This document shows, in pieces, positions 9,372-29,897 of a stretch of 40,000 nt of DNA. Position 1 is the stretch's first letter; each line of letters begins with the position of its first letter. The DNA lies in NCBI RefSeq assembly GCF_000025485.1, contig NC_013851.1, positions 743,154 to 783,153 on the forward strand. The letters are read 5' to 3'. Below the pieces are notes generated by a model that worked only from the letters and a program-made list of their open reading frames with translations, did not search any database and had not been told where the DNA came from. The DNA comes from Allochromatium vinosum DSM 180 (lineage in GTDB: Bacteria > Pseudomonadota > Gammaproteobacteria > Chromatiales > Chromatiaceae). Made by a program: the position numbers and the translations under genes.

Positions 9372-10977
9372 TTGGACTTTGGACAAAGCATCCTGCCAGC
9401 CAGCAAAAATCGTTCGCTCACATACAGTTGGAGTAGACAAGTCCCCTGCAGAGGAGAGCGAACGATGACCACTTCCATGTTGAAAGATAGCCTGGAATCG
9501 CTCCAGCATTTCCGTCAACGCCTCTACGAGCACCTTGGCGCGCGCCGTGACGCCAGCCTCAATCTACTCGATAGCCTGTGCGCCAACACTCAGGCGCGTT
9601 CGGTGGTCGAGCTGAGTTTGAACCCGGCCTTCGAGCGCGATTACACCAGCCTCTACGCCGCGATCGAGGCGTTCACGCCGGAGCCGACGGCGCGCGATCC
9701 GTCCCCGTCGACGGGGTTGTCGGCCTTGGTGTCTGAACAGATTCCGGCGCCTTCGCCAGCGCGTCCATTCTGGCTGTTGGGGGTGGACACCACGCCGAAT
9801 CCACGCCCGTTCGCCGCGACCTTGGCCGATCGTGGGGTGGTCTACCAGCCCAATCCGGCTCCGGGCAACAAACCGATCGCTGTTGGGCATCACTATTCGG
9901 TGGTGGCCGCCTTGCCGGAACGCTCCCGCTGCCATCCTCCGTGGGTCGTACCGCTCCAGGCGCGGCGCGTGGCCAGCAACACCACCGCCACCGCCGTGGC
10001 GGCCTCACAGATGGCCGCTGTGCTGGCCGATCCCGCCCAACCCTATGCGACGGCGTTGAGCGTGCAGGTGGCCGACTCCCACTACAGCCACGCGGCGTAT
10101 CTGCATGCGCTCAGTGCCTTCTCCAATCATGTCGTCATCGCCCGTAGCGCCGGCAACCGCGTCTACTCTCGCGCCCCGCCCGCCACCGACGGCGCGTGCG
10201 GGCATCCGATCTGGTATGGCGAGGCCTTTCGCCTCGCCGACCCCGAGACCTGGGGGAGTCCCTGCCAGAGCGCCGAATGGCCTGATCAGACCGCCTCCGG
10301 ACGGGCCATTCGCCTCACACTGGAGCGCTGGGACGACCTGTTGATGCGCGGACATCGTGACAGCCCGATGCAGGACCACCCCTTCGATGTGGTCCGTTGC
10401 CGTGTCTTCGACGCCCAGACCGGGCGCGCGCTCTTCAAGCGCCCACTCTGGCTGATCGTGATGGGCCAACGCCGCGCCGAACTGTCCCTGCAACAGATTG
10501 AACAGGCCTACCGCCAACGCTTCGATCTGGAGCACTTCTTCCGCTTCGGCAAACACCCCCTGCTCCTCGATCGCTTTCAAACCCCCGACCTCACCCACGA
10601 AGAGCACTGGTGGCCGCTCGTCTGCCTGGCCTATGTCCAGTTATGGCTCGCCGCCCCGCTGGCCAGCGATCTGCCCAGACCTTGGGAGCGTTTCCTCCCC
10701 AAACCGCTCGCCGACACCCGCCTCTCACCCGCGCGTGTGCAGCGCGACTTCGCACGCCTTATTCGTCAGATCGGCACACCGGCCCGCGCCACCAAACGCC
10801 GGGGTATCTCCCCAGGCCGGGTCACAGGGACGCCAGGCCAGAGACGGGCACGACTCCCGATCGTCTTCAAGCGCCAACCGAGGCTCACCGCGACGGCTTG
10901 ATCGGATGCATACCACGACACGTTTCAAGAAAGCCTACTGGGCGTCGGGAAGGAGCGTGTTTTTGTCCAAAATCCAG
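9372..10977 (+). mobile_element. IS4-family insertion sequence (about 1.6 kb)
   Basis: Imperfect terminal inverted repeats TTGGACTTTGGACAAAG (left) and CTGGATTTTGGACAAAA (right, reverse complement). 7-bp direct repeat TGATATT at 9365-9371 and 10978-10984. Single transposase ORF. Confidence 0.8.
9465..10901 (+). CDS. IS4-type DDE transposase
   Basis: 478 aa from ATG 9465 (GAGGAG upstream). The C-terminal motif YRQRFDLEHFFRFGK fits the Y-x2-R-x3-E-x6-K signature of IS4-type transposases. Confidence 0.8.
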   Translation: MTTSMLKDSLESLQHFRQRLYEHLGARRDASLNLLDSLCANTQARSVVELSLNPAFERDYTSLYAAIEAFTPEPTARDPSPSTGLSALVSEQIPAPSPARPFWLLGVDTTPNPRPFAATLADRGVVYQPNPAPGNKPIAVGHHYSVVAALPERSRCHPPWVVPLQARRVASNTTATAVAASQMAAVLADPAQPYATALSVQVADSHYSHAAYLHALSAFSNHVVIARSAGNRVYSRAPPATDGACGHPIWYGEAFRLADPETWGSPCQSAEWPDQTASGRAIRLTLERWDDLLMRGHRDSPMQDHPFDVVRCRVFDAQTGRALFKRPLWLIVMGQRRAELSLQQIEQAYRQRFDLEHFFRFGKHPLLLDRFQTPDLTHEEHWWPLVCLAYVQLWLAAPLASDLPRPWERFLPKPLADTRLSPARVQRDFARLIRQIGTPARATKRRGISPGRVTGTPGQRRARLPIVFKRQPRLTATA

Positions 10978-11173
10978 TGATATTGGGCCAGTAAGGAAAA
11001 GTCGCCCGCGTTGAAGCGCAGTTGGCCGAAACGATAGCTCTGTCCGTCATCGACGGTTCCGGGTGCGTTCGAGAAGGCGCCGAGACCGAGCGGATACAGA
11101 CTGTCGGGTCCGGCCTCGATGCCAAGGCCGTGGCTGTCCCAGCCGGCCAGATTCATCAGTCTTGCGCGAGAAA

Positions 11174-11193
11174 CCCCGTCCTTCAGGGCGGGG
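11174..11193 (-). repeat. Right-end subterminal hairpin of the IscB element
   Basis: Minus strand CCCCGCCC-TGAA-GGACGGGG, same loop and nearly the same stem as the left end, followed by TTTCT. Confidence 0.55.
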
Positions 11194-11220
11194 AGGGATA
11201 GCGCACCGCGCGTAGCGCGG

Positions 11221-12570
11221 CTAGGCCGCCCGTCTCGCCTTCTCCGCGTCTGGTTTAGATTGAAAGGCGTAACCATAGCCGTCAGCGCGTTGAAGGACGC
11301 GGCAATGGCGATAGGAAATCCCCTGAACGGTGGCGTCCTGGGTCTGAATGTTGAACGCTCCGGTTCGGCGCACCGCCACGCGCCCGACATGCACGCCGGC
11401 CCTCTTCCCGGCGGGCACTTCGGCACGCACCCAATCGCCGGTCTGGAAGCCGTGGACGCGCTTTTCACGGATGAGGTAGCCGCGCGGAAAGCCGAAGCGA
11501 TCGAGACGCGTGCGACTGTAGGTGCCACGTCCGGTGGCCCGGATGGCCAGGACCGGGCGGTTCCAGTCGCGCACCTGATCGACGGCGCCAACACAGCTGG
11601 CATCCAAGGCGTGGGTCTTGGGGAGGTTCAAGCGGGAGCGGTTGAACTTGGTCCGTCCGCCGGAGCCGGTCTCGACGGGAAGCCCCTGAGCTTTCAGGGC
11701 CGCGAACAGCGCCCAGCGCGTGGCATTGACGGCGGCGGCGTCCTGGAGCGGCGCTTGGGCCTGCGCCTGGATCTGGCGCAGGAGCGCCGGTTGGCGTTTC
11801 AGAAAGTCCTCGATGGACTGGTTCCCCTTGCGCTGATTGCAGGCTCGGCAGGCGAGCGTCAGATTCGAGACCCGGTCCGAGCCGCCACGCGAGCGCGGCA
11901 CGATGTGCTCGATCTCCAGCGGTACGCCCGTTGCGCTGCAATAGGCACAGGTGCGGTGCCACTTCTCTAGCAGATATTCGCGCACTTCGTAACCGGCCAG
12001 TTCGCCCTGCTGATATTCGACCCCGCTGATCTCCGGGTTCTGCAGGGCTTGGGTGTCGAACCGCACCAATTCCTGACTGAGGGCGGTGATCGGCGCCAGC
12101 CGCCGCAGACGCTTCACCCAGTTGACGGTGCTCTCGACTCGATGCTGTACCGAGGGTGGGAGCCAGCCCGTGCGGCGGGTGCGATTCAGGAAGCGCGCGG
12201 CTCGGTAGCGGGTCTTGCGAGACCGACGCGCCCGGCGCAAGTGACGCCGTTGCCCCAGGGTCTCCCGGATCGCCTGACCGCGATGCGCCAGTTCCCCGAA
12301 CCACAGTCCATGCTCCAGGCGCTCGACCGCGCCCGTGTCCGCATCACAGGTCTCGGATTCGCGCACCAGCGCCAGCCCCGTGACGCGACTGCCCGGATCG
12401 AGCTTCAGGCGCAGTGGTTGAAGCGCCCCGCCGATCCGATCCTTCAGGCGAATCGTGAAGGGGGCCAGACGCACCACCACCGCGCGTCCGCGCTCCAGCA
12501 ACAGCCGCGCGCGTTTCTCCGTGCACGGCATCAGCGGATGTTTCTGTTTGTCGAGTACGAATACCGCCAT
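11221..12570 (-). CDS. iscB: IscB RNA-guided nuclease (PLMP + split RuvC + HNH)
   Basis: 449 aa from ATG 12570. PLMP domain (KQKHPLMPCTEKRARLLL), RuvC-I LKLDPGSRVTGLAL, arginine-rich bridge helix RRHLRRARRSRKTRYRAARF, HNH CAYC..EIEHIVPRSRGGSDRVSNLTLACRACNQRKGN, RuvC-III THALDASCVG, and the C-terminal GFQTGDWV..VGRVAVRRTGAFNIQ domain. Confidence 0.9.
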   Translation of the reverse strand: MAVFVLDKQKHPLMPCTEKRARLLLERGRAVVVRLAPFTIRLKDRIGGALQPLRLKLDPGSRVTGLALVRESETCDADTGAVERLEHGLWFGELAHRGQAIRETLGQRRHLRRARRSRKTRYRAARFLNRTRRTGWLPPSVQHRVESTVNWVKRLRRLAPITALSQELVRFDTQALQNPEISGVEYQQGELAGYEVREYLLEKWHRTCAYCSATGVPLEIEHIVPRSRGGSDRVSNLTLACRACNQRKGNQSIEDFLKRQPALLRQIQAQAQAPLQDAAAVNATRWALFAALKAQGLPVETGSGGRTKFNRSRLNLPKTHALDASCVGAVDQVRDWNRPVLAIRATGRGTYSRTRLDRFGFPRGYLIREKRVHGFQTGDWVRAEVPAGKRAGVHVGRVAVRRTGAFNIQTQDATVQGISYRHCRVLQRADGYGYAFQSKPDAEKARRAA

Positions 12571-12830
12571 TGGTCTGTTCCAAACGTCTGCCCTTACGGG
12601 CCTGGTGACGGAGCCTTGCGGCTCGCTCCCCTCGGGAATGTCTGCAACCGGCTCCCGCCTCGCGGCGGCGATCGGAACCTTCGGCGCTTTGCCTTTCGCC
12701 TGCATGACTCCGACCTTCCAGGGTCCGGGACTGAGGAAGCATCCCGGAGTGGGTCTCAACGACCTGTTGCAAACGCAGCGGATGTTCACCGCTGTCCCTG
12801 GTCAACCCGGCTCGTGAGTCGCCTCACAAG
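12571..12830 (-). ncRNA. Putative omega-RNA scaffold of the IscB element (extent approximate)
   Basis: About 260 nt of non-coding sequence directly upstream of iscB with many local hairpins on the minus strand (CAGCGG-TGAACAT-CCGCTG, GGAGC..GCTCC, GCCC-GTAA-GGGC). Position matches known IscB loci. No covariance model was run. Confidence 0.55.
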
Positions 12831-12850
12831 CCCCCGCCTTCAGGCGGGGG
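12831..12850 (-). repeat. Left-end subterminal hairpin of the IscB element
   Basis: Minus strand CCCCCGCC-TGAA-GGCGGGGG, a perfect 8-bp stem at the junction with receptor coding sequence. Confidence 0.6.
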
Positions 12851-13623
12851 TAGTTGACCGTCATCGACAGGCTCCGCTCGGGGTCTTCGAGTGAATACAC
12901 GCCACCCACCTGCGTGGTATTGGCGTCACCATAACGCACATGCACGCGGCGTGCCTGTTGCAGTGTGACGATGTTCACGACGCCCGAGAAGGCAAACTCG
13001 CCGTAGAGCGCCGAGCCTGGTCCGCGAATCACCTCGATCCGCTCCACCTGTTCGACCGGCATCTCATCGAATATGAGCACGGCACCGTCGCTGGTGTTCA
13101 TCGACACTGAGTCGATCAGAACCTTGACAGTGCCGGTACTGTTTCCCTGTCCTCTGATCGACAGCGTCATCTCCCCGGTCCCGTTTCGCTCGACCAGGAC
13201 GCCGGGGATCAGCGTCAGGGCATCCGCCACCGTGCGCACTCCCAGCGCGAGCATCTCGGCGCGATCCAGCACGGTCATGATGCCGGGGACATAGTCGACA
13301 TTGATACGGTTTTTGGTGGCCAGCTCCGTGGCCTCATCCAGGATGGCCAGCAGCTCGGCCTGTTGTCGATCGGATTGGTCGTCTTCCTGAGGCGTGAGGG
13401 TGGCATCGGCGGCTCGTAGGTTGGCGCCGGTCGCAACGCCGGCGCAGAGCGCGCTGACGGCGAGCGAGCGTCGCCAGCGGCCGACAAACGTGTCGATACT
13501 GAAGGGGATCGAAACCATAGCAACCTACGCTCTAAGGCGTTCCAGACAGTTGAACCCCAAGGCCCAAGCGGACTCAGGCAATCTTAGCAGTTTCCGCGTA
13601 TCGGCAATCGCTGCGCATAAGAA

Positions 13624-16600
13624 CGGCTCGTCCCCGCGAGCGCGGGGAACGGGATTCCTGGATGAGCCTTGTTTCGGTCCCAATCGGTTCATCCCCGCGA
13701 GCGCGGGGAACGGTGGGCGTCGACGCGATCGCGCCATTCGGTGTCCGGTTCATCCCCGCGAGCGCGGGGAACGGCGCACCCAGCCGAGGATGTATCGAGA
13801 AAAATCCGGTTCATCCCCGCGAGCGCGGGGAACGGCGCCAAGCGCCCACGGTCGGCCACATCTGGAACGGTTCATCCCCGCGAGCGCGGGGAACGGGGAA
13901 CCAAGATCCTCCGTGACGCGGACCCCGAAGGTTCATCCCCGCGAGCGCGGGGAACGGCCGGCGCGGGACTCGGCTCCACATCGATGGGGCGGTTCATCCC
14001 CGCGAGCGCGGGGAACGGTCGGTGCTGGACTCGGGAATATTCAGCGCGGTCGGTTCATCCCCGCGAGCGCGGGGAACGGTGCAGAGCGGTCACTGATTCT
14101 GGAACAGAGGGCGGTTCATCCCCGCGAGCGCGGGGAACGGTTCAGCGCGGTCTTGAACGCCTCGAATGTGATCGGTTCATCCCCGCGAGCGCGGGGAACG
14201 GGTGTACACCACCTTTTCTAAGTAAAACAAGCACGGTTCATCCCCGCGAGCGCGGGGAACGGTATTGTCAGACCCATCAGAAATAGACCATAGCCGGTTC
14301 ATCCCCGCGAGCGCGGGGAACGGCTCGACAGCAAGCGCTTCCTCTTCCAGCAGGACGGTTCATCCCCGCGAGCGCGGGGAACGGGACGGCAGGATAGTAC
14401 GATGCGCGATTTCGTCCGGTTCATCCCCGCGAGCGCGGGGAACGGCTGTGATGCGTCGTTTTTTATTCCTGATTTTACGGTTCATCCCCGCGAGCGCGGG
14501 GAACGGAGGTCAGAGCCGCGCAGGGCCAAATACGCGCGCGGTTCATCCCCGCGAGCGCGGGGAACGGGCGGCATCGGTGCCGTAGCCGGCCTCCAGCGCC
14601 GGTTCATCCCCGCGAGCGCGGGGAACGGGACATCACGCCGCCGATCTGCGTGCCGTCGAGCGGTTCATCCCCGCGAGCGCGGGGAACGGGGTCTGACGAA
14701 TGGTTTGAGGCCCGCTGCGGACGGTTCATCCCCGCGAGCGCGGGGAACGGCGCGCCAATTTGCACCGCGCAACGCCGGACGCCGGTTCATCCCCGCGAGC
14801 GCGGGGAACGGCCCCTTACGCGGCTTGGACGTATCCTCACAGCCGGTTCATCCCCGCGAGCGCGGGGAACGGTTATAGCGCGATGTGGCTCCAACGGCAT
14901 CGAGCGGTTCATCCCCGCGAGCGCGGGGAACGGTCGGACTGGGATTTGGGGATAAGGTCAAGAGGCGGTTCATCCCCGCGAGCGCGGGGAACGGAAGAGC
15001 CAGAAATCAAGGCCTAAATGCCGGTGCGGTTCATCCCCGCGAGCGCGGGGAACGGCAACCTGCGTCTAATCCTGGAGAATGACCCCGCGGTTCATCCCCG
15101 CGAGCGCGGGGAACGGGCGCCCTGGCCCGATTCCGGAGCCAGGCACCGACGGTTCATCCCCGCGAGCGCGGGGAACGGGTCATGCGCCGTCGGCACAGAC
15201 GAGAACGCTACGGTTCATCCCCGCGAGCGCGGGGAACGGGCGAGCGGTGCGCGGGTGCCGGTCTTGGTCGCCGGTTCATCCCCGCGAGCGCGGGGAACGG
15301 CAACTCTACGTTTGCAATTCGATTGCGCAATTCGGTTCATCCCCGCGAGCGCGGGGAACGGTATCTGTGAGGCCACTAGTCAACGACTAATCGCGGTTCA
15401 TCCCCGCGAGCGCGGGGAACGGGAGGTATTCATTCATTTTTGAATCGATCTGACCGGTTCATCCCCGCGAGCGCGGGGAACGGTTTTCTCGCTCATTGGT
15501 CGCCTCGTGACGCATCGGTTCATCCCCGCGAGCGCGGGGAACGGTTGTTCGCGGCCCTGCTCAAGAATGCGGGCCACGGTTCATCCCCGCGAGCGCGGGG
15601 AACGGTCTACATCGCCATGAAGGGCGCTAACATCCTGCGGTTCATCCCCGCGAGCGCGGGGAACGGCCGGACATGGATTACAGCGCACGGCGCAGCCACG
15701 GTTCATCCCCGCGAGCGCGGGGAACGGAGCCGTCTGCTGGGCCTGGGCGGTCTCAGGGGCGGTTCATCCCCGCGAGCGCGGGGAACGGTGAGCGGGAAAT
15801 TGGGTCACGGTGTCGCCGGACGGTTCATCCCCGCGAGCGCGGGGAACGGATTCGCGATCGGGCGCAAGAGGAGGCTGAGACCGGTTCATCCCCGCGAGCG
15901 CGGGGAACGGGCCCCGGATCTGGCCATGCAGCCGTATGCCTACGGTTCATCCCCGCGAGCGCGGGGAACGGATCACCTGCTCGGGTTCTGCGATTCCCCC
16001 ACCCGGTTCATCCCCGCGAGCGCGGGGAACGGCAGCCGCCCGCCGAAGGATTGATACAGGATAACGGTTCATCCCCGCGAGCGCGGGGAACGGTCCTGTT
16101 CCTCGTGGCTGGCGATGGCTGTGGCCGGTTCATCCCCGCGAGCGCGGGGAACGGAACGCCCTACAGCTCGCGCGGCAGAACGAGATCGGTTCATCCCCGC
16201 GAGCGCGGGGAACGGGAGGCCCTGCCTGCGTATCACGGTGGGCAGGGCGGTTCATCCCCGCGAGCGCGGGGAACGGGTGCCTTCGCCCGTCCAGCCGGTC
16301 CAGCCATGCGGTTCATCCCCGCGAGCGCGGGGAACGGAGCCGGGATCTTGACACCGCATTTGAGCAGATCGGTTCATCCCCGCGAGCGCGGGGAACGGGC
16401 GATAAAGCGCTTGTTCGCGCTGTTCGATACCGGTTCATCCCCGCGAGCGCGGGGAACGGTCACCCTGCGCTTCCTGATCCTGGAGTAAGGCCGGTTCATC
16501 CCCGCGAGCGCGGGGAACGGACAAACGAGGGCGCGGATACCGACCGCTGGATCGGTTCATCCCCGCGAGCGCGGGGAACGGCCGGGTCTTCAAACGTAGT

Positions 16601-19206
16601 GGAGCCAATAACACGGTTCATCCCCGCGAGCGCGGGGAACGGTCAGCCATGTCGGTCGTCAGATCCTGCAAATTCGGTTCATCCCCGCGAGCGCGGGGAA
16701 CGGCCGGGTCTTCAAACGTAGTGGAGCCAATAACACGGTTCATCCCCGCGAGCGCGGGGAACGGGTATTTGATGCGGTCGAATACCTATTCAATAAAGGT
16801 TCATCCCCGCGAGCGCGGGGAACGGACCTCTGAGCCGGGGTTAATGGTGCTCATGGCCGGTTCATCCCCGCGAGCGCGGGGAACGGACGGCACGCAGCGA
16901 GACATCTGCCTCCAGCACCGGTTCATCCCCGCGAGCGCGGGGAACGGCGGTAGGTCTCGTCGTCGAGACCCAGATCCTTCGGTTCATCCCCGCGAGCGCG
17001 GGGAACGGCCACGTATAGGAAGCGCGAAAATCAGGGCGCGCGGTTCATCCCCGCGAGCGCGGGGAACGGATGTTCGTGGTTTAGTGGGTAGGCATATTCA
17101 CCGGTTCATCCCCGCGAGCGCGGGGAACGGACCGTGGATCCGGTCGGACGCTGGCGATAGACCGGTTCATCCCCGCGAGCGCGGGGAACGGCCGCCCAGA
17201 CCGTCCAGGAGGCTCCTGGCGGCCGGTTCATCCCCGCGAGCGCGGGGAACGGGCTGAATCCCCGGATGATGGGGCGCGGGTCGCCGGTTCATCCCCGCGA
17301 GCGCGGGGAACGGACGCCGAACGGCTCTGGGCGTGCTCGGGTCGCCGGTTCATCCCCGCGAGCGCGGGGAACGGTTCACCGGAATCGGGAAAACGTCGGG
17401 ATCGACCGGTTCATCCCCGCGAGCGCGGGGAACGGGATCAGAGTAATCATGCGAGTGACGCCAACCGCGGTTCATCCCCGCGAGCGCGGGGAACGGTGTC
17501 TTATATCTCTAATTCGCAGTCCATTATGCGGTTCATCCCCGCGAGCGCGGGGAACGGACTTTGATATCCTGTCTTTATCATTAAAGAACCGGTTCATCCC
17601 CGCGAGCGCGGGGAACGGACGGCACGCAGCGAGACATCTGCCTCCAGCACCGGTTCATCCCCGCGAGCGCGGGGAACGGCGAGGACTGCAAGTCCTGGCT
17701 GCGCTCGCCGACGGTTCATCCCCGCGAGCGCGGGGAACGGGCAAGGTCCAGAGCACGAAAGAAATTAGGCGGCGGTTCATCCCCGCGAGCGCGGGGAACG
17801 GGAAATCCATTTCGGGCGAATCCAACGGGGCGTCGGTTCATCCCCGCGAGCGCGGGGAACGGAGCGATTTTTTCGATTCACTGCCGACTGTTTACGGTTC
17901 ATCCCCGCGAGCGCGGGGAACGGGGCAGCGAGTTCCTCGACGAGATGGTGCGCACCGGTTCATCCCCGCGAGCGCGGGGAACGGAACAAGGCTGATGCGA
18001 CCCGCGCGAAAGCGTTCGGTTCATCCCCGCGAGCGCGGGGAACGGTCGAGCAACCGCAGCGCGTTCGGGAACTGCGTCGGTTCATCCCCGCGAGCGCGGG
18101 GAACGGGGTGGCGCTGCTGTGCTATGACGAGCTGACGCACGGTTCATCCCCGCGAGCGCGGGGAACGGTGTCATTCCTCCCGCCCGGCGCAGTCATAAAG
18201 CGGTTCATCCCCGCGAGCGCGGGGAACGGCGGAGCAAGGCCGCAGTAGCCGCGACGGCGAGCGGTTCATCCCCGCGAGCGCGGGGAACGGACCGAATCCC
18301 CGACGACCCCAGGATCCCAAGACGGTTCATCCCCGCGAGCGCGGGGAACGGCGGCTGTCATCGCATTTATGGGTCTCAAGCGGCGGTTCATCCCCGCGAG
18401 CGCGGGGAACGGGTACGGACGCAGCGACTCTTGGTGGCGCTGTGCGGTTCATCCCCGCGAGCGCGGGGAACGGTTGTATCTATCTGAGTAGGTGTTCCAA
18501 TGAACCGGTTCATCCCCGCGAGCGCGGGGAACGGCTGTCCTGATGTCGGCGACTCGGGACTCTGAACGGTTCATCCCCGCGAGCGCGGGGAACGGCTAAA
18601 AGCATCCCGAGGGAGCGTATAAGGCCGCGGTTCATCCCCGCGAGCGCGGGGAACGGAGCGTCAGCCGCTCCGCGATGGCTAGTCCAGGCGGTTCATCCCC
18701 GCGAGCGCGGGGAACGGGCGCCGGGCGTGCGATCGATCTCGTCAAATATCGGTTCATCCCCGCGAGCGCGGGGAACGGCTCCCCAAACCACCGCCAGAAG
18801 TTCCTCACCCCGGTTCATCCCCGCGAGCGCGGGGAACGGGCCAACAATCCAGCCACCATCACTAGCGCTCGCGGTTCATCCCCGCGAGCGCGGGGAACGG
18901 TTCCCAGGTTTGGCGTGTTTTTCCCTGGCTTTCGGTTCATCCCCGCGAGCGCGGGGAACGGGGGGCGGGCGTCTGTAGATTGGGCCGCGTCAGCGGTTCA
19001 TCCCCGCGAGCGCGGGGAACGGGTTTACCGACAAGCCCCCGGACATGCGAATCAACGGTTCATCCCCGCGAGCGCGGGGAACGGGCGTGTTTTTCCCCGG
19101 CTCTCTTCGGCGTGCACGGTTCATCCCCGCGAGCGCGGGGAACGGGGAGTTCTGCCAATAATTGTGGTGGAACCTGTCGGTTCATCCCCGCGAGCGCGGG
19201 GAACGG
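13624..19206 (-). CRISPR. Type I-E CRISPR array, 92 repeats / 91 spacers
   Basis: 29-bp repeat CGGTTCATCCCCGCGAGCGCGGGGAACGG on the plus strand. Its transcribed form CCGTTCCCCGCGCTCGCGGGGATGAACCG closely resembles the E. coli I-E repeat. 88 spacers of 32 nt and 3 of 33 nt. Degenerate terminal repeat at 13624-13652 (CGGCTCGTCC...). Leader and cas2 lie on the 19207 side, so transcription is on the minus strand. Confidence 0.98.
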
Positions 19207-19308
19207 ACTTCCCATACTTGCCTGATCTAGAAAAAGAAATCAGACGCTGAGAAATCTACCAACAAAATGCCTCTTTTCAAAGGGGCACGATTTTGATTGT
19301 CAAAGAAC
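19207..19308 (-). promoter_or_regulatory. CRISPR leader (AT-rich) with candidate promoter TTGAAA-16-TAGATT
   Basis: 102-bp AT-rich segment between the cas2 stop and the first repeat. Minus-strand TTGAAA (19275-19280) and TAGATT (19253-19258) are 16 nt apart. The promoter assignment is tentative. Confidence 0.6.
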
Positions 19309-20497
<1,189 letters not shown>

Positions 20498-20554
20498 GGC
20501 ATTCGGCCGTGTTGGTACCTCTCGCGTTATGGAGTAGCTCGACTGGAGAAAGGA

Positions 20555-20767
20555 TCAGGCCGCGATCTCGATGTAGTCGACCTGACTGGTCGGCGTTGGC
20601 ACCGGCAAGCCATCTTCTCGCAGACCTTCCAGATGAAACGCGATCGCTTCCCGAATCTCCCGCTCGGTCTCCTCCAGGGTGCGCCCGGTAGCGATGCACC
20701 CTGGCAGATCGGGGACATAGGCCGAGTAGTTATGCTCTGCTCGTTCGATCACGATGGCGTAACGCAT
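20555..20767 (-). CDS. hicB: HicB-family antitoxin-like protein (short form, no DNA-binding domain)
   Basis: 70 aa from ATG 20767. MRYAIVIERAEHNYSAYVPDLPGCIATGRTLEETEREIREAIAFHLEGL is the HicB/UPF0150 N-terminal fold pattern. Inserted between cas6e and cas1. Confidence 0.8.
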   Translation of the reverse strand: MRYAIVIERAEHNYSAYVPDLPGCIATGRTLEETEREIREAIAFHLEGLREDGLPVPTPTSQVDYIEIAA

Positions 20768-20778
20768 TGTCGCGGCCC

Positions 20779-20849
20779 TCATTTCCAACCGGCTTGTTTG
20801 TAATACTGCTCACCGTGCCTGGAGCCAAGTCGTCGCTCGACTTGCCCGG
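20779..20849 (-). pseudogene. HicA toxin C-terminal remnant (truncated and frameshifted)
   Basis: Directly after the cas6e stop, two frames together read PGKSSDDLAPGTVSS / YYKQAGWK*. This resembles the HicA C-terminus (..GKDLKPGTLRSILKQAGL). The stop is 11 nt before the hicB ATG. No N-terminal part exists. Confidence 0.45.
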
Positions 20850-21479
20850 TCATGAGGTAGCACGACGCACCAGCAGCAGTCCGCAGCCGAACGCCTTAGC
20901 GGGACCAAGGCCGTTTTCCAGTAATGCGACTAGCGCATTCGGATCAAGGACGGTCAAGAGACCCTCGAAGGTAGCGCACAGGATCTTTCCGCCTCGGTTG
21001 GCCTTACGAAAGTAGAGAGGCGGATGCGGTGTGACAGCGACAGCCTCGACTTCGGCGACATCCTTGAGCCGCTGTATCAGCCAGGATTTTTGGGTTTCCT
21101 CAGTGATCAGCGGAACACGGCAGGTATCGCGTGTCTTCCGTGGTTTGGTGTCTGCCTGTCGATCTTTGATGGTCTTGATCGGGTTCGCCGTCAGGATAAA
21201 GGCGAGCCGTTGGCCTTGCGAGGGTTGCGGGTTGATCTCTCGGCTACCGATGAGGTTCAGGGTGGCCTCGGGTTGTGGCATACACCTGGATTGAATCAGA
21301 ACCTGGGCCGGTCGGCCGGGCCGATGGTCCTCCACCCGGAACAGGAATCCCCGACGCGGCTGATCCGGCGTTCGGCGTGATTCCGCCGCTTCGCCGGGAA
21401 AGAGTCGCCATATGGCGCGGTGCATGTCATAGGGGTTGCGGGCCTCGGACCAAGGAATCTCAGCGCGACTCAGGATCAT
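20850..21479 (-). CDS. cas6e: Cas6e (CasE) crRNA endoribonuclease
   Basis: 209 aa. MILSRAEIPW..NPYDMHRAIWRLFP..FLFRVE..VLIQS and the C-terminal GPAKAFGCGLLLV are typical of Cas6e. ATGA overlap with cas5e. Confidence 0.92.
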   Translation of the reverse strand: MILSRAEIPWSEARNPYDMHRAIWRLFPGEAAESRRTPDQPRRGFLFRVEDHRPGRPAQVLIQSRCMPQPEATLNLIGSREINPQPSQGQRLAFILTANPIKTIKDRQADTKPRKTRDTCRVPLITEETQKSWLIQRLKDVAEVEAVAVTPHPPLYFRKANRGGKILCATFEGLLTVLDPNALVALLENGLGPAKAFGCGLLLVRRATS

Positions 21480-22159
21480 GAAGATTCCTCCTCGCGATGC
21501 AGATAGAGGCGGCGAGTAGCAAATTGGCGATGGCGACCGTAGCGGGGAACGTCGCGAATCCAGGTTGGTTGATCCGAGACGAGTTCGTCTTCGCTGTAGA
21601 TGAGTCCGCCATGGGGCGGAAACTGCGCTAATGCCGCTTTCGCGTCATCGGCTTCAATGCAATCCGGGCGTTCGAGCAGGGGGCGGCCCAGGGGGCAGGA
21701 GCGTCGTCCCAAAACGGGCGTGAAGCGCGGTTGCCGCAGAGATTCGGCGATCCGCGCCAGACTGAAACTTGCGTCTGGTCTGGAGCCGATAGCCACGGCG
21801 AAGGCGGCATCGAATAGATATTCCCTATGCGACTGGATCGGGAATTTATTCGTCGATCCGTCGACCTTCCGGGCATCGAGCACGGTGTGATAGTCAGACA
21901 GCTTGGTATGGCGCTTGGGCATCAGGCGATCGACGCCGGGACGCGGAGCGCCCGTGTCGAGGCGGACTGTGAATGCGACGCTCTCGGCGAGTGCATCGAG
22001 ACTCGGGGTGTCGGATCGGTCCAGCCCGAGACAGGCGCCCAGGAGTCCAAGCAGACCGCTACGGGTTGGAAACGGGTTGCTGGGACGATAGTCCTCGAAG
22101 GTGTGTGTGCCCCAAGCCTGCATGGGGCCATCGAGTCGAAGGATCAGGTAGCTCGGCAT
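21476..22159 (-). CDS. cas5e: Cas5e (CasD)
   Basis: Start at ATG 22159 gives MPSYLILRLDGPMQAWGTHTFEDYRPS..PTRSGLLGLLGACLG, the typical Cas5e N-terminus. Confidence 0.92.
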   Translation of the reverse strand: MPSYLILRLDGPMQAWGTHTFEDYRPSNPFPTRSGLLGLLGACLGLDRSDTPSLDALAESVAFTVRLDTGAPRPGVDRLMPKRHTKLSDYHTVLDARKVDGSTNKFPIQSHREYLFDAAFAVAIGSRPDASFSLARIAESLRQPRFTPVLGRRSCPLGRPLLERPDCIEADDAKAALAQFPPHGGLIYSEDELVSDQPTWIRDVPRYGRHRQFATRRLYLHREEESS

Positions 22160-22170
22160 GTCGGTACGCC

Positions 22171-23352
22171 TCACGCCCGACCATCGTTGGCAAGCCACTG
22201 TTCGAGGTCTGCGATCGAGGTCAGAACCTCTTGATCACCCAGCTTGATTCCTCCCCGGAGTGCAAAGGCGCGCGCCTGTTCGTCGAGTCCGTAGGCGCTG
22301 TTGACCCGTGACCAATAGTCGGCGAGCGCGGTGATGGATGGCTGGAGAAAACCTCCAATCTTGCGCTCACGTTCGATGGGTTCCTCGAAGGCGTTGGCAA
22401 GAGAGACGGGCTGATCGGCGAGGCTGACGATCACGAAGTCAGCCAGGTTGTGTGCCGCGAATGACTGCTGCTTGGCGGAAGGCACCACGGTGGCCAGCAG
22501 ATGCAAGACATGGCGAGCGATATCGAGCGCGCGCGCGCGCGACTCCGTCGTTTGCTCGGCATTTATGTTGGCCAGCAAGCCAAGATTAAACTGAAGCTGA
22601 CGCAGATTGAGGCTGGCATAGCGGTAGAAGACGCCCGCCGAGAATTGCTGGGTATTCAGGTGTCCGGCGCCGGTTTCGCCGGCATCCAGGGTCAGATCGT
22701 CGACAGCAGTGAACCAGTCGATGTCCTGAGGCTCCACCGTGTGGGTCGTGATGGCGTGAGCAACAGCGAGCGCCCCATCGACCGGATAGATGAGTTCGGA
22801 ATTGGCCATGCGTCCGGAGAGCGCGACATCCAGGTCGATGCGGGTGCGTTGCTCGCGCTCCAGACGCTGGATTTCGGCCTTCATGTACTCGATACGGCCT
22901 TTCTCCGGTTTGCCGGCGGCTTCGAGCAGGATCTGTTTGATTCCCTCGATTTCAGCGCAACTGAATGGAATGATCTGGGTTTCGATATGATCGCTTTTCT
23001 TGTCGCGTTCATACTTACCAATCTCGTCGATCTTGGTCTTTCCCTCGAAAATAGCCGCCGCATACAGCGCGCACTTCTCGATGGCCGTGGTCTGCTCAGC
23101 CGATTCGGCCGATGCGCTCAACTCGTCGGCCATTTTATCGAACAGCCGGCGCGTGCGCTGCGACTTACTAATAAAGTACCTGGCGTAATAGTCGCTATAT
23201 CTGATCGCGCGCTTGAGTGATTGACTGGAAATGCGCACCCGAGTCTTACCGCCGAAGATGGCGGTTTTCTGCATGTTCATGTCGTCCCGGTTGAGGCAGG
23301 ACGGACTGTGTGAAATGAGGACGTGGAAATTGACGAAATTCCTGGTGTTCAT
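22171..23352 (-). CDS. cas7e: Cas7e (CasC) Cascade backbone subunit
   Basis: 393 aa. FHVLISHSPSCLNRDDMNMQKTAIFGGKTRVRISSQSLKRAIR is almost identical in pattern to E. coli CasC. Confidence 0.96.
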   Translation of the reverse strand: MNTRNFVNFHVLISHSPSCLNRDDMNMQKTAIFGGKTRVRISSQSLKRAIRYSDYYARYFISKSQRTRRLFDKMADELSASAESAEQTTAIEKCALYAAAIFEGKTKIDEIGKYERDKKSDHIETQIIPFSCAEIEGIKQILLEAAGKPEKGRIEYMKAEIQRLEREQRTRIDLDVALSGRMANSELIYPVDGALAVAHAITTHTVEPQDIDWFTAVDDLTLDAGETGAGHLNTQQFSAGVFYRYASLNLRQLQFNLGLLANINAEQTTESRARALDIARHVLHLLATVVPSAKQQSFAAHNLADFVIVSLADQPVSLANAFEEPIERERKIGGFLQPSITALADYWSRVNSAYGLDEQARAFALRGGIKLGDQEVLTSIADLEQWLANDGRA

Positions 23353-23811
23353 TCACTTGTCTCCCTGGTCGATCTTGTGGAGGGCGATGTAGTAGCCTTC
23401 GACGAGGCGGCGTTTGCTGGATCCTGTCTTTTTACTGCCCCAGTACCAAAGGAGCGGAGCCAGATCTAGCCAGCCGACGGCTGGATGCAGTTGCATCACG
23501 AGCCGTCTCAAGGCGATGAGATCGTCCGGCGGATTGGCGCGGGCAATTTGCATGATCCGCTCTTCGGAAATGCTGTTGGCGCATAGAGTCATGAAGCCGG
23601 TGTTGCTGTTCAGTTCTGGGCACCAGGGCAGAAAAAACGCGAGCAGTGTTTCCTGATTCGAAGGTCTGCTTCCTGGAAACAGATGGTAGAGTCCAGGCAG
23701 ATCCCTCAAGTCGTCCGGCTCGGCGGCTCGGCGCAGTCCGGCCTTCGCTCCGTTGGGTAGCCGTTCGAAGCGAGCATGGTATTCGGCGAAATCCGGCGCT
23801 TCGGTGCTCAT
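23353..23811 (-). CDS. cse2: Cse2 (Cas11e, CasB) small subunit
   Basis: 152-aa ORF between cas8e and cas7e with Cse2-like size and basic helical composition. The ATG overlaps the cas8e C-terminal frame stop (ATGA). Confidence 0.85.
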   Translation of the reverse strand: MSTEAPDFAEYHARFERLPNGAKAGLRRAAEPDDLRDLPGLYHLFPGSRPSNQETLLAFFLPWCPELNSNTGFMTLCANSISEERIMQIARANPPDDLIALRRLVMQLHPAVGWLDLAPLLWYWGSKKTGSSKRRLVEGYYIALHKIDQGDK

Positions 23812-25330
23812 TGGCTCTCCTTGAGTTTCTTGAGATCAGCATTCAGGCTGCGGCGTGCCCAAGCGATGATTGGGATCAACTCAGGTTTCATTGTGTAAGG
23901 TTCGGTCATAGCATCGAAGATATCGCGGCAGTCAGCAGCAAGCGCATCGATATAAGCCGCGCGATTCTCTTTCCATTGCATGAACGTAGTCGGTCTGGAC
24001 AAAGTTTCAATGATTTTGCCTTCGGTCCGAGAGTAGAAGATTCGTTCTCCGACGTCCTGTATAGGAGATCCAATTCCTGGAAGCATTTTTTCTTATGCCC
24101 TTTGGACGCGAAAGAGAGCTTGTCCTTTAGACTCTCTTTGGCTTTTATGCCCAGCGCTACCAAATCTTTTAATCGACTGCCGTCTTCTTCGCTCCAGCCC
24201 GCTGCCAGAGAAAGCATCTCATGACGGCGCTCTGTGACCGATGCTTTGTTATTGCGGTAGCCGCCTATGATCAAAGTAAGTGGTTGGGGCTTTTCGAGCG
24301 CTGTTACTGCCATTGATTTAGCTTGAGCGACCGGAGTCGCTGGCCGACTGCCTTCTCCTTTCGGGCCATTGATGCGTAGGACCATCTCTGTGAGGCGTGT
24401 CCAGGCCGGAGCCTCTGTGGTGAAGGAGGCAAATTTCATCTCCAACGCACCCTTCTTGAGGCTCGACTGGAGTACGCCATGCGGATGCGGCCAAGTGCCT
24501 TCCAGCGTGAAGTTGAATTTCTCCTTCCGAAAGCCTGTGTAGAGCGGGCCAGCCTCAATGCCGAGCAGGTCGCAAGGTCCGGATTCGCGGCTACCAACCA
24601 GCTCGACATGGGCCGGCTGCCAGAACAGTCCGCGAGCGAGTCCGATTTGGTGAGCATGGATCGTCTCTTTTGACCGAATCGGTTCGATCCAGGTCGGCAG
24701 ATCCTGACTCAGGTCGTGCTGCCAATCCGGGAAATCCGTGCGGATGAACTCCGGGGTCAGCACATTGCACCAGATCCGTTTGCGCAGATTGCGGCCATCG
24801 ACGAGTGTCGTGATAGGAGCGATACCACGCAGACTGCCCTTAAAACCGCCGCCGAAGCTGGGGCAATTGGTCGCTTGATGGAAGAGCGCGATGGCGGCAA
24901 CCGGCGCTGAAAGCACCGAGACCTCACCAGGCGCGTTGAAAAAGGCATGATTGGTCCCCTCCGGCAGGCCGATCAGGAGTTTTTGGATGGGCGTGACGTC
25001 TTTGGCAACGACTCCGCGTGTTTGCATGAAAGGCTGCGTCGGGTGATCCAGGTCGAACCATTCCAGGCAGGGCGAAATGCCCTCGGTGAATTCGTCTGGT
25101 GTGAGCGGTATATCGATGCGGTCCAGCAGGACATCATCCTCCGGGGGCAGGAACATGATCTGCGTCATGCAGATCAGGAGTTGCAGACAGGCCAGTTCCA
25201 GGTCGTCTCGGGGAAGACTGATCTGCCAGTCTTCGTCTTCGCAGAGCAGTTCCTGATAGGTGAGCAACCGAAACGTGCCACTTCCGCCGTGGGCTCGCAC
25301 CGGGATCCAGGGTGTCTTCAACAGATCCAT
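23808..25330 (-). pseudogene. cas8e: Cas8e (Cse1, CasA) large subunit, reading frame broken at an A6 run
   Basis: N-terminal frame 25330->24092 (MDLLKTPWIPVRAHGG.., 421 good residues). The C-terminal 92 aa are in the -1 frame from 24086 to 23808 and are coupled to cse2. One extra A in the run at 24086-24091 would give about 513 aa. Confidence 0.85.
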
Positions 25331-25638: not shown

Positions 25639-25728
25639 GAATTCCCGGCTTAGCTTGGGATGACCCAAGTTACAGTGTCCTGTGACATCGAAATTGGGTT
25701 CGTTCCCCGCATTAGCGGGGTGCCTCCG
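25639..25728 (+). ncRNA. CreA/CreR-like mini-CRISPR (psiR1 - 32-nt pseudo-spacer - psiR2), inverted relative to the main array
   Basis: psiR1 25639-25667 is 16/29 identical to the repeat and psiR2 25700-25728 is 20/29 with an intact CCCCGC/GCGGGG stem. Exact 61-nt period. psiR2 overlaps the cas3 stop codon. Confidence 0.6.
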
Positions 25729-28345
25729 TCGGCGGGTCCATGAGGCCCGCCGTTTCTGCTTTGGCCAAGCCAAGCTCAGTCGTGTAGCAGACTCCTCCAT
25801 CAAGGCTACTCCAGCGTTGTTGGCCGTCGTCATGCATCTTGAGCCGAATGCGGCCATCCTCATCGCGGACGTGGCCCGCAAGCTGCCTGTCGCCCCAACT
25901 GTGCGGTGCGGGAACCGTGTTCAACATGAGCGTTTCAGCTTGGGTGTATTCGTCCATCTGGTCAGGATCTTCGCCGTCCAGCAGGCGACCATCCTCTCGA
26001 GTCAGCAGAACGGATAAGCTCATTTCGCCATCTCGTGTGAGCGAGGTCAGGCGCTCTTCGTCGTCGCGAAATTTGCTCAGGTTCATGGTCGTGAGACGAT
26101 GTGCTTTCTTTTCTGCCTCGCTTTGGTCGTCCCGCCACGCCAGATGTTTGCCATAGACGGTCCCAGGCTCATCATCCCAGGGAGCTTCTCCATAGACAGG
26201 CTCGATCCATTCCCGATAGGCTGCTGGAAAATGGATCTGCTTGTGCCGGGCCAGCAGGAACTCGGTTCGCCACAGCAGGCGTGCATCGCCGTAGATCAGT
26301 TCATGCAGACCGTAATCGTCCGTTTCGACCGACAGGACGGTGCAGGTGGGAACCTGGAAATCATCGGGACGTTTGCGCGAGTGTCTGTGCAAGCGTCCGA
26401 GACGCTGGAATAGGAGGTCGACCGGGCAGAGCTGAGTGATGAGCCAATCGAAGTCCAGATCGAGGCTCTGCTCGATGACCTGGGTCGCGACCAGGATGCG
26501 TCCTTGAGTCCGTTCGGCGTCACGTCCGTAGTGCTCGATCACCCGCTGCTCGATACGCTGTCGGTCCTGGAGCCTGAAGCGGGCATGGAAGAGATCGACG
26601 GGCACCTGGGCATTCTTGTGGAGCTGAATCCAGAGTTGCTGAGCATCGTCGACCGTGTTCATCACGATGCCAACCAGGGCACCGGATTCGGCTGCGTCGA
26701 TGATACGTTGGATGAGCGGCTCGTCGGGGCAAGCACCGCCCAGTTTGGAGAGGCTGACTTCGATGGTGCGTTGGGCCGGGCGCTCGGTGTCCGGCAAGCT
26801 CAAGGGTGAGTCGGATTCGGATAGCGCGGCCGTATTCCAGATGGCCGGATAATTGGCGACATCCGCGACTGGTTCGTGCCCCCATGATTCCAAAAGCTTG
26901 CCGCGAATGCTGGCGGGCAAGGTCGCCGACAGCAGGATGGCGCTTCCCCCAACCGCCTTCTGGCGCTTGAGCACCTCGATCAGCAGCCCATTCATGTAGG
27001 CATCATAGGCATGCACCTCGTCGACGATCAGAACGGAGCGGTGCAGCCCGAAAGCCCGGACGAAATTGTGTCTGACCGGCAGGACGGACAGCAAGACCTG
27101 ATCGACCGTGCAGACGCCGATCTGTCCCAGGAAGACACGCTTGCGGCTGCTGGCCAGCCAGGCGGCACACTGGACGCCGGCCTCGGTCTCGCCCTGAGCC
27201 GTGCGTTTGGATCCGGCCTCGATAAGCCGTTGGTACGCCTGATTCAGCCGACTATGCCCATGAGCCAGAACCAGATTCGCGCGACCAAAGGCGCTCTTGG
27301 AGAAGGTTTCACAACGTCCAAGCATCGCGTTTGCCGTGGCCTGAGTGGGAAGCGCGAAGACGATCGACTCGGCCAGTCCGGCATCGATCAGGCGCCAGGC
27401 GTAGGCCAATGCCGCTTCGGTCTTGCCGCTGCCCGTGGGAGCTTCAACGATCGTCAGTCCTGGAACAAGCGGCAGATCGTCGATCATGACCTGAGTGCCG
27501 CGCGGATGCTCGTCGGTTTTGAGCAGAGCCGGGATTCCCTGATAGGCCAGCGGCGTGGCGATCAGCCCGAAGTGCCTCAAGATATCGTCGCGTCTGATCT
27601 GCTCCAAGCGTGAATGCAAATAGTCGTTTGGAGAGAGTGCAGGCGGGGCGTAGGCAAAGACGTCGACATTGGAGCCTATCCAGTCGCACAGACTACAGAA
27701 TCCCGCCAGCAGGTTTCGGGCTTCGGTTACGCATGGCGGTGGTGGATCTTCGAGGCTCAACCCAGCCGGGTGGAGGAAGAGATCGGCCGCTTCCTGGATC
27801 CATGCACGGCGCGCATTGGCGTCTTGCTCCAATATAGTCGCTTCGGCATAAGCAGGAAGAGGATCGTCGTTATCCGGGATCTCTCCGTGATGCCCCGTCA
27901 CGGCGGCAAGCCACGAGGACCAAGCTTTCAATGCGTGACGGCTTGCGGGTTTGAACCAACCGCGAAGCTCGGCCATCGACAGACGGTATCCTTCACGGCC
28001 ATGATCGTAGTGTCCGCCCGAGGTATCGATCAGCTTCGTCGAGGCTAGATCGGGCCAGATCTGAGGCAGGATATGGGGGGCTTTGATCTGAAACAGCGCG
28101 TGCAGCTTTCCGATGTCATGGAGTGCGACGAAAAACAGGATCCACGCCAGAAGCCGCTGAATTTCCGCCTCTTCCACGTCAAAGGCAGCCATGAGAGTAC
28201 GGCGGACTGCCGACGAATCTCGCCAAAACGTTGCTGCAATTACTGCTGCATCGAGGGAATGGTAAGCGAAGGGATGCCATTTGTTGGCCCCTTCGACTCC
28301 CGTATCTGCCTTCGCCCAATAACGCCAATAGTCCTTGGATAACAT
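25712..28345 (-). CDS. cas3: Cas3 HD nuclease / SF2 helicase (I-E)
   Basis: Start at ATG 28345 (GGAG 7 nt upstream). HD region ..HPFAYHSLDAA..ALHDIGK.., helicase motifs APTGSGKTEAAL and DEVHAYD, C-terminal domain. 877 aa. Confidence 0.95.
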   Translation of the reverse strand: MLSKDYWRYWAKADTGVEGANKWHPFAYHSLDAAVIAATFWRDSSAVRRTLMAAFDVEEAEIQRLLAWILFFVALHDIGKLHALFQIKAPHILPQIWPDLASTKLIDTSGGHYDHGREGYRLSMAELRGWFKPASRHALKAWSSWLAAVTGHHGEIPDNDDPLPAYAEATILEQDANARRAWIQEAADLFLHPAGLSLEDPPPPCVTEARNLLAGFCSLCDWIGSNVDVFAYAPPALSPNDYLHSRLEQIRRDDILRHFGLIATPLAYQGIPALLKTDEHPRGTQVMIDDLPLVPGLTIVEAPTGSGKTEAALAYAWRLIDAGLAESIVFALPTQATANAMLGRCETFSKSAFGRANLVLAHGHSRLNQAYQRLIEAGSKRTAQGETEAGVQCAAWLASSRKRVFLGQIGVCTVDQVLLSVLPVRHNFVRAFGLHRSVLIVDEVHAYDAYMNGLLIEVLKRQKAVGGSAILLSATLPASIRGKLLESWGHEPVADVANYPAIWNTAALSESDSPLSLPDTERPAQRTIEVSLSKLGGACPDEPLIQRIIDAAESGALVGIVMNTVDDAQQLWIQLHKNAQVPVDLFHARFRLQDRQRIEQRVIEHYGRDAERTQGRILVATQVIEQSLDLDFDWLITQLCPVDLLFQRLGRLHRHSRKRPDDFQVPTCTVLSVETDDYGLHELIYGDARLLWRTEFLLARHKQIHFPAAYREWIEPVYGEAPWDDEPGTVYGKHLAWRDDQSEAEKKAHRLTTMNLSKFRDDEERLTSLTRDGEMSLSVLLTREDGRLLDGEDPDQMDEYTQAETLMLNTVPAPHSWGDRQLAGHVRDEDGRIRLKMHDDGQQRWSSLDGGVCYTTELGLAKAETAGLMDPPTEAPR
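25730..25762 (+). terminator. Candidate intrinsic terminator for the plus-strand mini-CRISPR transcript (antisense, inside the cas3 3' end)
   Basis: 7-bp GC stem CGGCGGG / CCCGCCG (25730-25736 / 25746-25752) followed by TTTCTGCTTT (25753-25762). Confidence 0.45.
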
Positions 28346-28651
28346 GACGGGACTCCGCTTTTCCGTGTCATCAGGAGTCCTGATCATAGACGAAGTGACG
28401 GGCGTTCCGCCAAACCTGGGATGGCGTATTTCGTGTATTGTTTGGGCTTTGTCGCCGTTAGAGTGAAGATGGGCAGTCGGTCAAGGCGCGCTTGATATCG
28501 ATGGATTGTCAGCCGGACGCCCGACTCCTACACTGTGACGCATTCGTGACCCTTCCTGCCTCCGTGCCGAGGCCATGGTTTCTGTCGCGCCTCCCTCACC
28601 GTCGGCCCGACCGGGCCGCAGATCAACCCTCAACGATCAAAACGATCAACC

Positions 28652-29528: not shown

Positions 29529-29897
29529 TCACTCCGCGCTTCGCTCGTTCCGCTCGTTCCGCTCGTTCCGCTCGTTCCGCTCGTTCCGCTCGTTCCGCTC
29601 GGCCGGAATGAGTGTCGGGACACGCGGATCGATCCCCTCCAGCATGAACACGAACGCCAGCACCTCGGCGACGGCCACATAGAGCGCGCGCGGGATCTCA
29701 GCCCCGAGCGGGATCTGCGCCAGAGCCTCCACGAGCACCGGATCGGCGCGCAGCGGGATGTCGTGCTCCTCGGCGATCTTGAGGATCTGTTCGGCGGTCA
29801 GGCCGGTTCCGGTGGCTGTGATGCGGGGAGCGTGTTCGCGGTCCCAGTGGAGCGCGACCGCCTTGGTGGTCTTGGGACGTTGAGGGGGGGCGCTCAC
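29529..29897 (-). CDS. FlhB C-terminal-domain-like protein (EscU/YscU/HrcU family, stand-alone short form)
   Basis: 122 aa. AVALHWDREHAPRITATGTGLTAEQILKIAEEHDIPLRADPVLVEAL..IPRALYVAVAEVLAFV, then a C-terminal (NER)n tail. Overlaps the fliK stop. Confidence 0.8.
   Translation of the reverse strand: MSAPPQRPKTTKAVALHWDREHAPRITATGTGLTAEQILKIAEEHDIPLRADPVLVEALAQIPLGAEIPRALYVAVAEVLAFVFMLEGIDPRVPTLIPAERNERNERNERNERNERNERSAE
29543..29601. repeat. 9-bp tandem repeat GCTCGTTCC x 6.5, in frame in the flhB-like gene
   Basis: Six perfect consecutive copies from 29543 to 29596 plus a partial copy. Encodes NERNERNERNERNERNER on the minus strand. Confidence 0.95.

Follow-up and report, generated by a model that had tools for sequence, protein, structure and literature searches.

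Overlapping leader-proximal spacers in the type I-E CRISPR array of Allochromatium vinosum reveal an AAG PAM and have the layout of primed acquisition

Two spacers near the leader of the type I-E CRISPR array of Allochromatium vinosum DSM 180 overlap by 20 nt on the same strand, and the younger one carries, directly before the shared sequence, an AAG that can be read as the PAM of the older protospacer. The spacers were numbered from the leader, and the two concerned are spacers 2 and 5 (90 and 87 of 91 when counted from the trailer). Judged from this layout, no other history of spacer 2 is as likely as primed acquisition, which we regard as somewhat probable.

The analysis covered a stretch of 40,000 nt, referred to here as the window. 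Its minus strand holds a complete canonical type I-E CRISPR-Cas locus consisting of a cas operon, a leader and an array, in the order cas3, cse1, cse2, cas7, cas5, cas6e, cas1, cas2, leader and array. In a profile search, 8/8 cas genes scored above the curated NCBIfam cut-offs, and they were located on a single strand, in the canonical order and in one operon beside the array. The genome comprises 3.67 Mb in three contigs with 64% GC, and no further array with the same repeat was found elsewhere in it. The features of the locus are as follows:

25712..28387, minus strand: cas3 (HD nuclease and helicase), NF007248, 1260 bits
23808..25348, minus strand: cse1/cas8e, frameshifted, NCBIfam profile match with a frame break
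23353..23811, minus strand: cse2/cas11, above the curated cut-off
22171..23352, minus strand: cas7e, above the curated cut-off
21476..22198, minus strand: cas5e, above the curated cut-off
20850..21479, minus strand: cas6e, above the curated cut-off
19580..20497, minus strand: cas1e, adaptation gene, TIGR03638, E=2.6e-113
19309..19617, minus strand: cas2e, adaptation gene, TIGR01873, E=2.7e-34
19207..19308, minus strand: AT-rich leader of ~100 nt, between the cas2 stop (19309) and the first repeat
13624..19206, minus strand: CRISPR array of 92 repeats and 91 spacers, leader-proximal end at 19206

A full-length Cse1, as an intact effector would have, is absent from the assembly. Residues 1-420 lie in a single frame and match positions 1-405 of the CasA profile at 634 bits, after which the frame breaks at an A6 run near 24086-24091. 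The C-terminal domain continues in the -1 frame as a 92-aa ORF (23808-24086, profile positions 410-494, E=4e-7), while the in-frame tail past the break gave no profile match. The break may be a true mutation, a slippery site, a recent event or a homopolymer error of sequencing or assembly. A genuine break would probably mean that Cascade no longer functions and that priming could not occur at present. The frameshift gives no date for the capture of spacer 2.

The array repeat is 29 nt long (CCGTTCCCCGCGCTCGCGGGGATGAACCG) and recurs with a period of 61 nt, and the spacers measure 32 nt in 88 cases and 33 nt in three. The repeat RNA folds into a hairpin of the I-E type (-14.5 kcal/mol) with an 8-nt 3' tail, AUGAACCG. 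The features expected of a type I-E array were found, namely a partly palindromic 29-nt repeat, a 3' portion that supplies the 8-nt 5' handle of the crRNA and spacers of 32-33 nt. A 27-nt core is identical in 89/92 repeats, and the trailer repeat, farthest from cas2 (13624-13650), is degenerate with two changes. Given the AT-rich leader that follows the cas2 stop and the degenerate repeat at the opposite end, the leader side is correctly assigned. The I-E gene set together with the position relative to the leader makes spacer 2 younger than spacer 5.

A first-pass annotation of this DNA had described the two spacers in crRNA sense (minus strand) as sharing 20 nt with two differences. Their coordinates and sequences, as well as the overlap and both mismatches, were reproduced here:

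19085..19116, minus strand: spacer 2 (trailer count 90), the younger, whose bases 13-32 overlap spacer 5
18901..18932, minus strand: spacer 5 (trailer count 87), the older, which differs from spacer 2 at positions 2 and 7
19105..19107, minus strand: AAG within spacer 2 (its bases 10-12), read as the PAM of the older protospacer

All 91 spacers were compared with each other without gaps and on both strands, with a score of matches minus three times the mismatches. Bases 13-32 of spacer 2 align with bases 1-20 of spacer 5 at 18/20 identity on the same strand. The mismatches fall at positions 2 (18931) and 7 (18926) of spacer 5, which correspond to 19103 and 19098 in spacer 2, and at both sites spacer 2 has G and spacer 5 has A. 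The seed of E. coli type I-E comprises positions 1-5, 7 and 8 (Xue 2015, PMC4678831), and under this definition both mismatches are seed positions, as had been claimed.

The pair scored 12, compared with 7 for the best of 20 shuffled sets, and it was the top pair in the array when the two exact duplicates (spacers 26=38 and 41=43) were set aside. A shuffle null over 92,093 within-array pairs of related arrays gave ~0.7 pairs scoring at least 10 per replicate, against 47 observed. The overlap of spacers 2 and 5 is not due to chance. A history in which the two spacers have no common target, and resemble each other through chance or through mutation or rearrangement inside the array, is very improbable. 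Apart from the score of 12 against a shuffle maximum of 7, the probability of AAG standing precisely at the junction is 1/64. The two registers lie 12 nt apart, which is incompatible with the duplication of a unit and calls for two captures. Mutation within the array is also poorly placed to account for the differences, as two point mutations within 20 nt are unlikely where the repeats are almost invariant. Spacers 2 and 5 probably represent separate captures from one stretch of ~44 bp, carried by two sequence variants of the same mobile element, as far as can be judged from the spacers themselves.

The AAG directly before the spacer 5 match inside spacer 2 had led the first-pass annotation to propose AAG as the PAM. 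Four further independent read-outs agreed with this assignment, and we consider the AAG PAM to be confirmed, read from sequence in five independent ways within the genus or its phages. The spacers that supplied additional read-outs in this array are listed below:

14141..14172, minus strand: spacer 83, the younger of a second overlapping pair (score 11; shuffles at most 7)
14019..14050, minus strand: spacer 85, the older of the second overlapping pair (score 11; shuffles at most 7)
17802..17833, minus strand: spacer 23, with a 30/32 protospacer and AAG immediately 5' in a congener (G003:C34:186417-186448)
18779..18810, minus strand: spacer 7, matching three uncultivated tailed phages at 28-29/32 within one large gene

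The final 11 nt of spacer 83 are identical to the 11 nt with which spacer 85 begins, AAG directly precedes the shared sequence, both spacers are on the same strand and the younger lies upstream. In another congener with an identical repeat (G005), spacers 1 and 112 overlap at 19/20 with the same 12-nt offset and AAG at the junction, which brings the overlapping-pair read-outs within the genus to 3/3 with AAG. The protospacer of spacer 23 sits in an island of ~3.8 kb in G003, between cinA and a gene for a PLP enzyme. This island looks like an integrated inovirus-like element, given that it encodes an HTH protein of the Cro/CI type and a rolling-circle replication protein (REP_ORF2-G2P). The 383-kb contig that carries it contains no other protospacer of the array. 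The phage matches of spacer 7 are flanked by AAG in 2/3 and by AGG in 1/3, and no second protospacer of the array was found within these three phage records. With AAG at spacer 23 and in two of the three spacer 7 matches, the alternative that protospacers of this array generally lack AAG was not borne out. Three other candidate matches were set aside: those of spacers 52 and 75 in G003 (25/32 each) lack AAG and were taken as chance, and that of spacer 48 in a Leptolyngbya phage (28/32) has CGC upstream and lies in a low-complexity repeat, and was likewise attributed to chance.

The last base of the repeat offers a related observation. It is G before 89/91 spacers and T before 2/91, and in related arrays, too, a minority of repeats end in a base other than G. 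In E. coli, this base is reportedly copied from the PAM, as Swarts and Datsenko are said to have described in 2012. By analogy, the G/T pattern fits a PAM-derived origin.

To place the pair among others of its kind, overlapping spacers were surveyed in 73 I-E arrays with similar repeats, holding ~2,950 spacers, from 46 other genomes of the family and class together with the array of the window. A BLAST search of the whole array against 250 genomes of the family was dominated by repeat matches, and it was used for the array coordinates of the survey. All within-array overlapping pairs scoring at least 10 were listed. One opposite-strand pair (spacers 12 and 19 of array L065) was left out as a palindrome artefact arising from an exact duplicate. 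The non-identical pairs were distributed as follows:

8 pairs, same-register variants: priming geometry not applicable
8 pairs, same strand, shifted: younger upstream in 7/8, binomial p=0.035
8 pairs, opposite strand, shifted: younger downstream (the arrangement that fits priming) in 5/8

When E. coli is primed on phages through its type I-E system, more than 99% of the upstream (PAM-side) spacers share the orientation of the priming protospacer, 95% of the downstream spacers have the opposite orientation, and upstream spacers are ~10 times more numerous (Strotskaya 2017, PMC5389539). Spacer 2, which is nearer the leader and thus younger, lies directly upstream of the older protospacer in the same orientation and has this geometry, in agreement with the first-pass annotation. 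By analogy, the layout of spacers 2 and 5 is what the E. coli priming mechanism would produce. Across the survey, 12/16 shifted pairs fit the E. coli geometry, with p=0.038 in a test that was framed post hoc. The offsets of the younger same-strand upstream spacers range from -1 to -22 nt, and -12 occurs twice within the genus. The opposite-strand overlapping pairs do not clearly fit the priming geometry, and their 5/8, together with the 12/16 of all shifted pairs, indicates that a good share of overlapping pairs arises without priming of the E. coli type. In a simple mixture of E. coli-like priming and orientation-blind independent capture, about half of the pairs would be primed, and a same-strand upstream pair such as spacers 2 and 5 would be likely to have been primed, with wide uncertainty.

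The overlap, the strand, the array order, the AAG and the I-E gene set are direct observations, and a primed history built on them would run as follows. Spacer 5 would have been captured first, from a protospacer flanked by 5'-AAG. A variant of the element in which protospacer positions 2 and 7 were G rather than A would have entered later, and the spacer 5 crRNA in Cascade would have recognised it imperfectly, with the PAM intact and two mismatches in the seed. Cas3 would then have been recruited and have left the PAM-proximal end, translocating 3'->5' on the non-target strand. From a position 12 bp upstream, Cas1-Cas2 would have taken up a same-strand fragment, which became spacer 2 on insertion at the leader; spacer 2 would on this account hold the sequence of the variant, the old PAM included. 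A causal role of the older crRNA in the later capture is inferred, as is the escape of the variant from interference.

The second of these points fared less well than the first. The first-pass annotation had described primed adaptation against a seed-escape variant, and its priming part is consistent with the same-strand upstream geometry, the AAG and the seed positions of the differences, whereas a selected escape did not find such backing. Two random differences among the 20 overlapped positions would both fall on the 7 seed positions with a probability of 21/190 = 0.11, which does little by itself to mark the differences as selected seed-escape mutations. In the survey, 15 same-strand pairs contain mismatches, of which 10/34 fall in the seed against ~8 expected, so that related pairs show no enrichment. 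The other two pairs of the genus have either an overlapped seed without a mismatch (83/85) or a single mismatch at position 17 (spacers 1 and 112 of G005). The two changes in the spacer 2/5 pair are 5 nt apart, so that no single frame would place both at third-codon positions, and this spacing gives a weak hint against purely neutral drift and in favour of selection. Seed escape of the invader is possible but unsupported, and the data are explained just as well by priming on a relative that had diverged naturally.

Priming of the latter kind (interference-driven or 'cross' priming) would involve a second invader, naturally related to the first, with the differences at positions 2 and 7 already in place. 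This invader would have been partly cleaved, and the Cas3 degradation products would have fed Cas1-Cas2; the causal chain would be that described above, with no selection for seed mutations. Targets with one or two seed mismatches and a good PAM still undergo interference and priming in E. coli (PMC4678831). Upstream same-strand capture also occurs where the seed is unchanged, as in spacers 83 and 85 (perfect PAM and a perfect 11-nt overlap on the seed side) and in the G005 pair, which differs at position 17 only. By sequence alone this account is inseparable from the version with escape. We tentatively consider it the more likely form that priming took, and its probability is counted within that given to priming as a whole.

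A serious rival, which we hold to be quite possible yet less probable than priming, is that spacers 2 and 5 were acquired independently from related invaders, either naively or through priming by some other spacer, with the spacer 5 crRNA playing no causal part. The region would have been sampled twice since a few AAG-flanked sites are strongly preferred, and the differences would be ordinary divergence. Identical spacers do recur within arrays, in 25 pairs across the family set including the two in this array. In addition, a same-register pair with 29/32 identity links the arrays of two different congeners, where a priming connection is not possible, and it shows that independent lineages sample the same protospacer. 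Half of the shifted pairs (8/16) are on opposite strands, 4/16 have a geometry that priming of the E. coli type almost never gives, and the mismatches lack seed enrichment, all of which speaks for independent capture. This account would, however, place ~1/4 of the shifted pairs in the class with the younger spacer on the same strand and upstream, against 7/16 observed, or 7/8 of the same-strand pairs. All three overlapping pairs of the genus (3/3) have the younger spacer on the same strand and upstream, as in priming, which also speaks against it.

The source of spacers 2 and 5 was found in none of the phage, plasmid, genome and metagenome collections searched. When the whole array was compared with 50,697 phage records, these two spacers had no match, and its comparison with 72,556 plasmids returned only repeat-driven matches to other I-E arrays. 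Searched singly against the plasmids, spacers 2 and 5 gave chance matches only (E>=0.7); a Phaeobacter plasmid match was rejected, having no AAG and no extension. AAG followed by the 20-nt core, in both variants, had 0 exact matches in IMG/VR, in 185,579 species genomes and in the JGI metagenomes. In the same three collections, the 19-nt core GGGAAAAACACGCCAAACC had 4, 2 and 0 matches, which is about the chance expectation, and none of them extends past the core. Among 100 relatives, nothing matched the 20-nt core with at most one mismatch. The own genome contains no match longer than 18 nt to any array spacer, so that there is no self-target. The neighbouring spacers gave a similar picture, as spacers 1-6 had no match in the phage and plasmid collections, and the cores of spacers 1, 3 and 6, like the 83/85 junction, had 0 matches in IMG/VR. 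The shared protospacer region and its variants, for which the first-pass annotation had looked to the databases, were thus not recovered, and no match pointed to unrelated sources for the two spacers. With the invader present in none of these collections, the priming reading of spacers 2 and 5 rests on geometry.

The system closely resembles that of E. coli K-12. The gene order and families are the same, Cse1 and Cas3 score as equivalogs of the E. coli proteins, and the two systems share the 29-nt hairpin repeat, the 32-nt spacers, the AAG PAM and the variable last repeat base. The resemblance extends to the layout seen in priming, with the younger spacer upstream of the older protospacer in the same orientation and with mismatches within the seed of positions 1-5, 7 and 8. 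The A. vinosum system differs in its host genome of 64% GC, in the repeat loop and in the frameshifted cse1, and what is said of it here comes from DNA sequence. A further difference is how close the two protospacers lie: the newer runs across the PAM of the older and into its sequence, and so short a distance was not singled out in the E. coli priming experiments cited. As in Nicholson et al. 2019 (RNA Biol 16:566), as far as that work is presented in PMC7293040, priming is deduced from the strand and order of spacers in the same array; that work, in the same presentation, maps spacers to known targets, whereas the link made here is the mutual overlap of the spacers alone. Recurrent and duplicated spacers, which Kupczok et al. 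2015 (PMC4524480) reportedly connect with hot protospacers and array recombination, have their counterpart in the exact duplicates and same-register variants of this array and its relatives. Unlike duplicated units, spacers 2 and 5 are shifted by 12 nt and require two capture events.

The case shows established type I-E biology in a further host and leaves the knowledge of type I-E systems unchanged. Its value lies in the fact that overlapping spacers give an internal reading of the PAM without any database match, for a system with very few recognised targets, and in providing a natural example with the layout of laboratory priming in E. coli. The 7/8 result for same-strand pairs suggests a cheap and scalable test for priming in natural arrays. 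A more general proposal, which we put forward as speculative and rather unlikely, is that primed capture in this family of I-E systems often takes DNA directly adjoining the priming protospacer at its PAM-proximal end, or overlapping that end. If this were true, overlapping pairs would serve as a database-free read-out of the PAM, of array polarity and of priming activity, and they might reveal a preferred footprint of Cascade, Cas3 and Cas1-Cas2 at the edge of the R-loop. For A. vinosum itself, the results are useful for genome annotation and for the design of targets and priming assays in this host.

The last base of the CRISPR repeat was examined across the type I-E array of the window, and two of its 92 repeats were observed to carry a T in place of the G.

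16797: repeat 40, last base T
13929: repeat 87, last base T

In the sister arrays, an A, C or T was found as the last repeat base in approximately 4% of the units. These minority bases, together with the T-ending repeats 40 and 87, fit a PAM-derived last repeat base. As this base would be a copy of the PAM, the spacers at repeats 40 and 87 may stem from non-AAG (AAT-like) source sites.

Two spacers occur twice within the window array.

17619-17650 and 16887-16918: spacers 26 and 38, exact duplicates
16704-16735 and 16582-16613: spacers 41 and 43, exact duplicates

The neighbouring spacers on either side of these copies were not duplicated. Exact duplicates were common in the related arrays too, with 25 pairs across 67 arrays. 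Possible origins are the repeated capture of a hot protospacer and repeat-repeat recombination.

The trailer end of the array directly adjoins a region that looks like a TonB-dependent receptor gene split in two (8296-13518), with two inserts lying between its parts.

8296-9324: beta-barrel ORF of the split receptor
9285-10901: DDE_5 transposase, first insert
11221-12789: RRXRR + HNH protein of 522 aa, second insert, apparently IscB-like
12802-13518: Plug-domain ORF of the split receptor

Within the cas operon on the other side of the array, cse1/cas8e is frameshifted in the stretch 23808-24091. The break falls at an A6 run, past which the C-terminal domain is carried on in the -1 frame by an ORF of 92 aa, the stop codon of which overlaps the start of cse2. 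This break may reflect a pseudogene, a slippery site or an error in the assembly. A gap of 350 nt (20498-20849) separates cas6e and cas1, which are normally adjacent in I-E operons. Elsewhere in the window, 6.7 perfect tandem copies of the 9-nt unit CGCTCGTTC (29542-29601) are flanked by the racemase-like ORF and a FliK-like ORF.

A protospacer of window spacer 23 was located in the congener genome G003, in what looks like an integrated inovirus-like element.

L019 5400-9200 (G003:C34 ~185.4-189.2 kb): small island flanked by cinA and the gene of a Cys/Met PLP enzyme

The island carries genes for a Cro/CI HTH protein and for a rolling-circle Rep protein (REP_ORF2-G2P). The AAG-flanked protospacer matches at 30/32 positions, with mismatches at positions 8 and 25.

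Comparison of arrays from two species of the genus revealed that spacer 73 of L004 (G005) and spacer 21 of L006 (G001) share the same register and are 29/32 identical; they represent one protospacer sampled independently from diverged invaders. A G005 array showed overlap between its newest and a very old spacer.

L075, G005:C1 ~2504.5-2511.7 kb: congener array of 118 repeats

Here, spacer 1 overlaps spacer 112 at 19/20 positions with AAG at the junction, and lies 12 nt upstream of the spacer 112 target on the same strand, an offset identical to that of window spacers 2 and 5. Given the age of spacer 112, a crRNA from deep within a long array may therefore still be able to guide capture.
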